Source: Anolis carolinensis (Eukaryota). Taken from it: DNA of 64,000 bases. The stretch is from NCBI RefSeq assembly GCF_035594765.1, contig NC_085842.1, forward strand, positions 320,601,359 to 320,665,358. The letters run 5' to 3'. Shown piece by piece: positions 20,184 to 21,231 of the stretch. Position numbers and translations under genes: made by a program. The notes under the pieces were generated by a model. That model was not told the DNA's origin and did no database searches. It was given only the letters and a program-made list of their open reading frames with translations. Every line of letters starts with the position of its first letter. Position 1 is the first letter of the stretch.

Positions 20184-21231
20184 TGTTATGATTGAGCCTC
20201 ATGGCTCTGTTACTGGCAGACGTGGGCGTAAGACTCCTCGAGAGTCAGATACTCTCGAGGAGCGAGAAAGAAAGAGACTGCGAGATATCTTTGCAGCACC
20301 ATCTGACGAAGAGTCTTTTGAGGGGTTTACGGAGAGAATGGAGGAGGGGCTGGTTAGCTCGGAGGAGGATGAGATGGATTGGACTCGGGTGAGGGAGGAA
20401 TTGGGTGCCACTGGCAATGATGGGATGGAAGATGAATGGGGACCTTCAGGATTAGACCCATGGACAAGCTGGAGGGATGGGACGGGATCCACAGCTGGGG
20501 ATGCTGTGGGGCGTAGTCAGAGGTGTTCCAGCTCTGATGAGGAAAGTGATGAGGAAACGCCCGGGTTAAGGAGGGCAGCTGATAGTGATGAGGATTTGTA
20601 ACTGGCATAAAATGAGGCTTGGGAGCAATTGCAAATTGCGTTGGGCATGGTAATCTGGACGAACGCTTGGGATCTGTGTGGGACGCTTTCCTGAAGACTG
20701 GTGTGTTTTCGTGTGCTGATACCTTTGACCTTCCGTCGTCTTCTTGACGGACGCCATCTCCTGCTTTGGATTTCGGACTGAACTGACCACGGCTTGACTT
20801 CCCCCTACTCGGACTTGGTGAAACTACTGCTTCTGGCTTGAACTACGGAAAGGAACTGGGTCTACTCTACTGCTTCAATCCTCGGCTGATCTGTGTGTAT
20901 TGGAAATCTTGCCTGCTGTGTGGAGGAGTGACTCAAGTTACTCAAAGCACAGTGCTGGCAGCAGAGAGGAATCTGCTGCCAATTAATTGCATTCTTTTGA
21001 ACACTTTGTTCCCCGGCTTCTGTTTTGTTTATCCCCAGGCTGAAGCAAGCTGTTTTGTTTTTACCCGGATTAAACTCCGGTTTAATCCGGTTTATCTTTT
21101 GAACATTTTTCCTTGCCTCTTTTTGCTTTTAAAGGCTAATACTGCCTGGCCCTTGTATTTTACGGGCATTTTGAGTTCTGTTATCCAATAAACTCTGTTA
21201 TCTTTGATCTTGTGGCGTTCTGTCTTTGACA
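20184..21231 (+). mobile_element. Solo LTR (probably Gypsy/Ty3-type) with a U3 ORF
   Basis: TGTTA...TGACA termini; 5-bp TSD GGATA (20179-83, 21232-36); TATA-like CATAAAA near 20607; AATAAA at 21187. Confidence 0.88.
20188..20601 (+). CDS. Putative LTR-encoded acidic 137-aa protein with a LEDGF-IBD/TND-binding-like motif
   Basis: Uninterrupted ORF from LTR base 5 to just before the TATA-like box; basic patches plus DIFAAPSDEESFEGF. Confidence 0.5.
   Translation: MIEPHGSVTGRRGRKTPRESDTLEERERKRLRDIFAAPSDEESFEGFTERMEEGLVSSEEDEMDWTRVREELGATGNDGMEDEWGPSGLDPWTSWRDGTGSTAGDAVGRSQRCSSSDEESDEETPGLRRAADSDEDL

Follow-up and report, generated by a model that had tools for sequence, protein, structure and literature searches.

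A Ty3/Gypsy integrase tail encoded in a long terminal repeat of Anolis carolinensis carries a candidate LEDGF/HRP2-binding motif

A 64,000-nucleotide stretch of the Anolis carolinensis genome (NC_085842.1, positions 320,601,359 to 320,665,358 of the forward strand; hereafter the window, with positions counted from its first letter) contains the solo long terminal repeat (LTR) of a young Ty3/Gypsy retrotransposon family, the U3 region of which is filled by an open reading frame (ORF). The initial annotation took this frame for a separate accessory protein that closely mimics the LEDGF/p75-binding motif and saw integration targeting through LEDGF/HRP2 as a possible use. We retain the second part of this proposal as the likeliest use of the motif. 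The stand-alone protein is not supported: pol runs on into this frame in full-length copies, where it forms the C-terminal tail of integrase. The reading that we favor, with a probability of roughly 0.6, is that an FxGF-type motif in this tail tethers the retrotransposon to host LEDGF or HRP2.

The LTR (Table 1) has TG...CA termini and a target-site duplication, and it matches the paired LTRs of full-length copies in sequence, as expected of a solo LTR. Kinesin exon motifs on the minus strand flank it on both sides (DLAGSE...INQSL at 21432-21360 and PFRQSKLT at 19039), and a kinesin exon lies about 110 bp from the LTR end. By its upstream Pfam matches to SAM and Kinesin, the gene encodes a kinesin that begins with a SAM domain, and we take it from this domain order to be KIF24-like; the UBA-domain exon and the NUDIX gene are presumably UBAP1-like and NUDT2-like, respectively. 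Within the LTR, the features described in the initial annotation are all in place. Positions 20188-20601 translate without a stop and end just before the CATAAAA at 20606, and the 137-residue translation contains RRGRK, RERKRLR, RLRDIFAAPSDEESFEGF and the acidic runs, with DIF..EGF at 20284-20328 and the phenylalanines at F35, F44 and F47. By their sequence, the two basic patches may constitute a bipartite nuclear localization signal.

Table 1. Features of the window, with the solo LTR and its components listed before the host genes.
Feature	Position	Strand	Description
Solo LTR, 1048 bp, TG...CA termini	20184..21231	+	Young Tf1/Sushi-type Ty3/Gypsy family; antisense within kinesin-gene intron
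Left target-site duplication GGATA (5 bp)	20179..20183		
Right target-site duplication GGATA (5 bp)	21232..21236		
U3-encoded Pol/integrase C-terminal tail	20185..20601	+	Pol-frame residues 1077-1214 of full-length copies
137-codon ORF as read in the solo LTR	20188..20601	+	
Basic patches RRGRK and RERKRLR	20218..20283	+	Sequence; identical in both subfamily copies aligned
TIM-like motif RLRDIFAAPSDEESFEGF	20275..20328	+	Helix with I34/F35, acidic linker, CK2 consensus S39-D-E-E, FxGF at F44-F47
TATA-like CATAAAA	20606..20612	+	Directly 3' of tail stop codon; second subfamily has CATAAAA too
10 nt complementary to primer-binding site of full-length copies	20638..20647	+	Putative self-priming site and genomic-RNA 5' end
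Poly(A) signal AATAAA	21187..21192	+	
SAM-kinesin host gene	11293-32292	-	Pfam domains
UBA-domain exon (host gene)	2789-3124	+	Pfam domains
NUDIX host gene	45835-46185	+	Pfam domains

A DNA search of the genome gave 2946 candidates, of which 40 were scored; all of these were 93-100% identical across the whole LTR, and they were often paired at a distance of about 5.1 kb. Nine such pairs were fetched and examined as full-length copies. Each carries a gag frame (Pfam matches to Retrotrans_gag, DUF4939 and Ty3_capsid, and a weak CCHC) overlapped by a pol frame in another register, in which protease, reverse transcriptase (RT), RNase H, integrase H2C2, rve and a Tf2-1-like SH3 follow one another. 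No Chromo match was found in pol at E ≤ 0.1. There is also no env in the full-length copy L031, where gag and pol are the only frames of at least 200 codons. Gag followed by protease, RT, RNase H and integrase, with no env, is the arrangement of the Tf1/Sushi group. The element is a chromovirus by descent only, as it lacks the chromodomain yet is nested among chromodomain-bearing relatives. Full-length Metaviridae are described from Anolis in PMC3670739, and nearly identical proteins carry the label Anolis carolinensis.

The Tf1/Sushi assignment is further borne out by the primer-binding site (PBS). Self-priming is described for this group in PMC6317226, and the PBS of the full-length copies is complementary to 10 nt of the LTR that lie 32 nt after the TATA-like box, a length reached by 25 of 2000 shuffled PBS. 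In a second subfamily, about 90% identical to the first over the integrase end and tail, five of five copies show 8-11 nt of complementarity at the same offset. The genomic RNA would hence start at about position 20638. Duplications of 5 bp flank 13 of 14 solo LTRs and eight of nine full-length copies, and the two LTRs of a full-length copy differ by 0-6 substitutions. The family must be young, since 136 of 150 scored genome matches encode the ORF unchanged. The window copy is a recombination remnant whose frame is intact only through its youth. Two unusual arrangements were seen among the copies: a tandem LTR-internal-LTR-internal-LTR array of the parent family (G000:C1:100251360-100262140) and three second-subfamily copies spaced about 13.7 kb apart, with 1500-codon frames (G000:C3:215266379-215297049).

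The relation of the ORF to pol is directly visible in the full-length copies. In all nine, the frame that contains the SH3 end of integrase crosses the polypurine tract (PPT) into the 3' LTR, and we conclude from this that Pol ends in these 137 codons as its C-terminal tail. Five of the nine have a single pol frame of 1214 codons; in the others the frame is shifted, ends early, or is broken by an insertion or by a stop further upstream; by table count, frames of at least 1000 codons hold 31 of the 150 genome matches. The junction reads G-D-S-V-M, its last three codons spanning the end of the PPT and the LTR terminus TGTTATG. Given this continuity at the DNA level, the tail is very probably translated as part of integrase. 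The ORF on its own had no Pfam match at E ≤ 1, and the ESM Atlas returned only leads below 0.9, none of them named.

A separate protein in the manner of nef or sag, translated from the ATG that lies at LTR base 5 in an mRNA that is either spliced or reads through, would agree with the presence of this ATG in 30/30 LTR loci of L001-L030 and 30/30 of L040-L069, and a subgenomic RNA is possible. However, the ORF lacks a separate 5' end. Its ATG is formed by the LTR terminus TGTTATG and has T at -3 in 30/30 loci, and an identical G-D-S-V-M junction occurs in a second, chromodomain-bearing Anolis family with an unrelated tail. As the putative RNA start lies downstream of the ORF stop, a solo or 5' LTR promoter would be unable to transcribe the ORF. 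Moreover, the comparable motifs of wall lizards, described below, appear from the protein sequences to be encoded upstream of the LTR. An accessory protein is thus highly improbable, and the window copy is probably not expressed on its own. Among sequencing runs, none that contains the element is recorded as RNA. In contigs of four runs that we presume to be RNA, every one of the 30 bins of a full-length copy is covered and no GT..AG joint is listed, although strand, level, splicing and absence are not readable from contigs. In two of the four contig sets, the integrase end and U3 (L031 4241-5724) have a much greater summed depth than gag and RT, a measure that in contigs cannot rank regions.

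The tail is under purifying selection as a protein, in line with the protein-coding role supposed in the initial annotation. We compared five of the nine first-subfamily copies with 21 of 30 second-subfamily copies, having dropped those with stops, indels or a missing anchor, and express the ratio of nonsynonymous to synonymous change (dN/dS) as a mean over 105 non-independent pairs. This ratio is 0.04 for RT and 0.03 for integrase, rises to 0.96 in the 31-residue linker before the LTR, and falls to 0.21 in the tail encoded by the LTR (p 1.6e-5, Fisher test on mean counts). In one pair, the tail substitutions are distributed over the three codon positions as 8, 4 and 22. The 414 coding nucleotides align without a gap, whereas the non-coding LTR, over about 465 nt, has 17 gap openings. 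The pol frame in U3 has a pN/pS of 0.24. The other U3 frames were rejected as the selected frame: four have pN/pS of 1.2-3.1, the antisense frame in codon register has 0.41, and all contain stops. The subfamilies differ at two amino acids within the motif, and both changes keep or add an acid.

The motif itself has the composition of a TND-interacting motif (TIM), TND being the TFIIS N-terminal domain. PMC9987994 describes TIMs as built from a short helix followed by an acidic linker (8-16 residues), in which CK2 phosphorylation is frequent, and in some cases by an FxGF that is specific to LEDGF and HRP2. In the tail, RLRDIF aligns with EVADIF of JPO2 M1 and LADVF of the lizard CDCA7L, so that a short helix is indicated by sequence pattern; the linker AAPSDEES contains a predicted CK2 site, S39-D-E-E; and FxGF is represented by F44-E-G-F47. 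Scanned in six frames, the window contains 17 FxGF matches, and only that of the ORF has an acidic prefix. A search of 177,635 PDB sequences returned a single match at E ≤ 10, the fusion of the LEDGF integrase-binding domain (IBD) to JPO2 M1 (6EMO), with an E of 1.5 that is not significant alone. The JPO2 motif quoted in the initial annotation was correct.

The resemblance could be fortuitous: a tail that is acidic, G+A-rich and under selection for another role, such as nuclear import, charge, stability or overlapping U3 signals, may happen to contain such a motif and yet bind no TND. Apart from the E-value of the PDB match, this is favored by the fact that the helix-linker-FxGF pattern was written after the motif had been seen, by the spread of selection across the whole tail with no focus on the motif, and by the second Anolis family, which also reads pol into the LTR and has no TIM there, so that LTR-coded tails evidently need none. 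On the other hand, among 200,000 composition-matched shuffles of the ORF the full pattern of helix phenylalanine, acidic linker and FxGF was never obtained (acid plus FxGF occurred in 569 and bare FxGF in 896), the only three phenylalanines of the tail all fall within the motif, and the pattern recurs, twice in tandem, at a different place in a clade that is only about 48% identical. We therefore regard chance as quite unlikely.

Host counterparts of the motif were read from the lizard's own genome. Two genes, which by likeness to 6EMO we take to be CDCA7L and CDCA7, have the same F-x8-FxGF spacing; the CDCA7L M1 motif KLADVFNAPSDDEDFFGF is identical to that of the element at 11 of 18 residues and the CDCA7 motif at nine of 18. 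Besides CDCA7L, the CDCA7-like gene (L168:1801 region, G000:C1:209.47-209.48 Mb) bears a complete TIM-like motif, EMAEIFKEDSDDESFCGF. At the DNA level, the element and CDCA7L motifs share 30 of 54 nt and five of 11 identical residues use identical codons, which gives no sign of a recent capture. Recent capture from either CDCA7L or CDCA7 is not supported (30/54 nt, 3-5 identical codons); the motif may have been captured from the host in the distant past. A helix phenylalanine, an eight-residue acidic CK2 linker and FxGF are common to the host TIM proteins CDCA7L/JPO2 (M1 and M2), CDCA7, KMT2A, IWS1 and the transposase-derived POGZ. The Anolis motif differs from all of these in being encoded by a mobile element. 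The potential partners are also present in the host genome, as PSIP1, the gene for LEDGF/p75, and as a second IBD locus taken for HDGFL2, the gene for HRP2. A PSIP1/LEDGF retrocopy that has no introns, and whose IBD contains one stop codon, lies at G000:C2:143718346-143718648.

A complex of ORF residues 21-62 with residues 400-490 of lizard PSIP1 was modeled in three runs. It scored 0.40 against 0.01 for the best control, with a partner pLDDT of at least 52 and at least 60% of the contacts common to the runs. The mark used was reached by 51 of 78 solved and two of 108 mismatched pairs, a calibration that did not extend to peptides, and passes at or below 0.60 are more often wrong than right unless the interaction was likely beforehand. 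Furthermore, as a similar complex (6EMO) has already been solved, the model shows likeness only. Of the mimicry claimed in the initial annotation, the resemblance to an FxGF-type TIM is therefore well founded, and binding is weakly supported by the model. We consider it likely that the motif would bind the IBD of LEDGF or HRP2.

The position of the motif acquires meaning from the relatives of the element. A chromodomain forms the end of most of the 150 library representatives nearest to it (a strict regular expression recognized 63, and inspection by eye more, 42 of the 150 having no anchor and being judged in this way), and the conserved Anolis tail, C-terminal in integrase, occupies the same site. 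The helix-linker-FxGF pattern was found in seven of 129 tails examined, three of the Anolis family and four others. Of the latter, P0162 and P0172 of the wall lizard Podarcis muralis have two tandem motifs, LEGF followed by FRGF; P0171, from the same species, has the second motif and a variant first; and P0011 (ENA) has one. In all four, the motifs follow a chromodomain that, judged by eye, is devoid of the first and last cage aromatics; the ESM Atlas placed the P0162 tail with chromodomain clusters (leads below 0.9). A TIM is missing from P0009, P0129, P0159 and the second Anolis family, all of which have retained the cage aromatics. Within the Anolis genome, no family with both a chromodomain and a TIM was found among 60 loci (30 of 72 and 30 of 150 matches, only the top candidates having been scored).

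Over RT to integrase, the Podarcis/ENA proteins are about 48% identical to the Anolis family. In two quick trees (SH-aLRT support only, with P0166 left out as short) they form one clade, with a support of 100, apart from the long-branched Anolis family. Judged from the proteins, their motifs precede the PPT-like translation, and those of Anolis follow it. Separate clades and a different position relative to the PPT make an independent gain of the motif likelier. A single origin of all motif-bearing families is less likely: the free trees separate them, although the approximately unbiased test does not reject a single clade (p 0.078) and LTR exchange could blur the history. A wider proposal is that squamate Ty3/Gypsy elements at least twice replaced a methyl-lysine-reading chromodomain with a linear motif of the host elongation-factor type that tethers integrase to LEDGF/HRP2, inside the 3' LTR and with the chromodomain gone in Anolis, and as one or two motifs after a decayed chromodomain in wall lizards. 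We put this forward tentatively and rate it slightly below even odds.

Our picture of tethering begins with a Pol that is very probably made from genomic RNA, its frame crossing the PPT to reach the 3' U3, so that integrase ends in a 138-residue acidic tail and not in the chromodomain of its relatives. The FxGF-type motif of this disordered tail would dock in two IBD pockets of LEDGF/p75 or HRP2, and phosphorylation by CK2 at S39 would probably strengthen the docking. The PWWP domains of LEDGF and HRP2 could then hold the integration complex on transcribed chromatin marked by H3K36me, and insertion from this state would be biased or assisted. That the tail stands in the place of the targeting chromodomain of its relatives suggests a role in site choice, to which we give the same weight as to tethering overall; a strong gene-body bias, although predicted, is less probable.

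Several findings weigh against this reading. First, the family is scarce outside the six large chromosomes. These hold 84.7% of the bases, and only eight of 150 family matches, which the search tool selected among 10,688 candidates on criteria not known to us, lie elsewhere; in hand-merged loci, about six of 117 do so (binomial p 0.001). The chromodomain family behaves alike, with four of 150 matches outside (p 0.35 between the two families on hand-merged loci). Small chromosomes are presumed to be gene-dense, and if this is so, the scarcity of copies there means that there is no HIV-like pattern; purifying selection may also have filtered the standing insertions. The intronic location of the window copy is a single case. 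Second, dN/dS at the motif, a test proposed in the initial annotation, is low in the motif core (0.19; p 0.084 for the core alone) but at this distance no lower than in the downstream tail (0.17). The synonymous rate of the tail (0.24, vs 0.41-0.44 for RT or integrase) shows that cis-constraint on the LTR or recombination also shapes this region. Third, loss of the cage and presence of the motif do not always coincide. P0160 has lost the cage and has no motif, and P0013/P0155 of Podarcis, in which all three cage aromatics are missing, have an FxGF whose linker is rich in Ser/Thr and not acidic, so that the pattern fails.

Some of these observations would also be expected if the tail were part of Pol and bound a TND protein for a purpose other than site choice, such as chromatin retention, stimulation of integration, or recruitment of elongation factors or anti-silencing activity, or if it acted after release by the protease. 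The evidence for the motif, i.e. the 6EMO match, the identity to host motifs, the shuffles and the model, is the same in this case, the absence of enrichment on small chromosomes is accommodated, and TIMs are described in PMC9987994 as serving TFIIS, ELOA, IWS1/SPT6-type and other TND complexes too. Nevertheless, the tail stands exactly where relatives have their targeting chromodomain, the motif-bearing families have lost that domain or its cage, and FxGF is the part of a TIM that the same source assigns to LEDGF and HRP2. A role confined to such functions therefore appears unlikely, and tethering for site choice remains our preferred explanation.

The element shares its gag/pol layout, the order protease-RT-RNase H-integrase-SH3 and the self-priming PBS with vertebrate Tf1/Sushi (V-clade) chromoviruses, from which it differs in the missing chromodomain, in a pol that extends 138 codons into the 3' LTR and in the acidic TIM-like tail. 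In plant CRM elements, the 3' LTR is described as coding for a targeting domain, the CR motif (PMC3059260). CRM group A belongs to another lineage with another sequence and a centromeric target, and the partner of CR is given as unknown in that account, whereas the Anolis motif suggests a specific host partner, one that resides on transcribed chromatin. Short disordered C-terminal motifs of integrase that bind a host chromatin reader are represented by the Ty5 targeting peptide with Sir4 and by the integrase tail of murine leukemia virus with the BET ET domain (PMC4176367). In those systems binding and targeting have been demonstrated; for the Anolis element we infer them, with LEDGF/HRP2 as a different partner. 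Lentiviral integrase uses LEDGF/p75 and HRP2 (PMC9987994), and the Anolis element would employ the same host domain (IBD/TND) and the same tether logic. HIV integrase, as described in PMC10854676, binds LEDGF through a site that is structurally prearranged, in which it differs from the cellular partners with their unstructured motifs; it is a cellular motif that the Anolis element would copy. A search of literature listings, in which subscription journals were mostly missing and supplements were not included, found no report of a retrotransposon with a TIM or a LEDGF tether. Integrase peptide tethers as a kind are thus already known, and the LEDGF/HRP2 partner and the mimicry of a host motif appear to be new.

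Site choice of vertebrate LTR retrotransposons is largely untested, and here an active, high-copy family names a likely host cofactor in its own sequence, with a chromodomain family of similar age in the same genome as a built-in control. If the tether is real, this would be the first mobile element in the literature searched that uses a host-type TIM for LEDGF/HRP2, convergent with lentiviral integrase and reaching the lentiviral host tether through a wholly different interface. The families would then provide a natural series of retargeting, from chromatin read by a chromodomain to transcribed chromatin, as well as a natural ligand series for TND pockets. A more general lesson is that ORFs filling the U3 of solo LTRs can be Pol tails and not accessory genes.

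Several minor observations were made on the same group of elements. In the second young Anolis Gypsy family (L074-L103 and L138-L167; e.g. G000:C1:42711555), the chromodomain is canonical and the 3' LTR adds about 90 codons to pol. Its TIM-free tail ends in RRS(A/L)RIAA(R/K), and P0159 of Podarcis contains RRSARLKAR; the nucleosome-binding core of HMGN proteins is RRSARLSA. By this similarity, the tail end is a possible anchor for the nucleosome acidic patch. The gene models P0070, P0078 and P0129, in which integrase pieces of the same retrotransposon group are joined to vomeronasal receptor or zinc finger genes, are probably annotation artefacts. Finally, two further frames overlap the LTR of the parent family: a 175-codon stop-free antisense frame over U3/R in most copies examined (L031 798-271 on the minus strand; about 20354-20874 in the window) and a 138-codon sense frame that has no ATG and spans R/U5.
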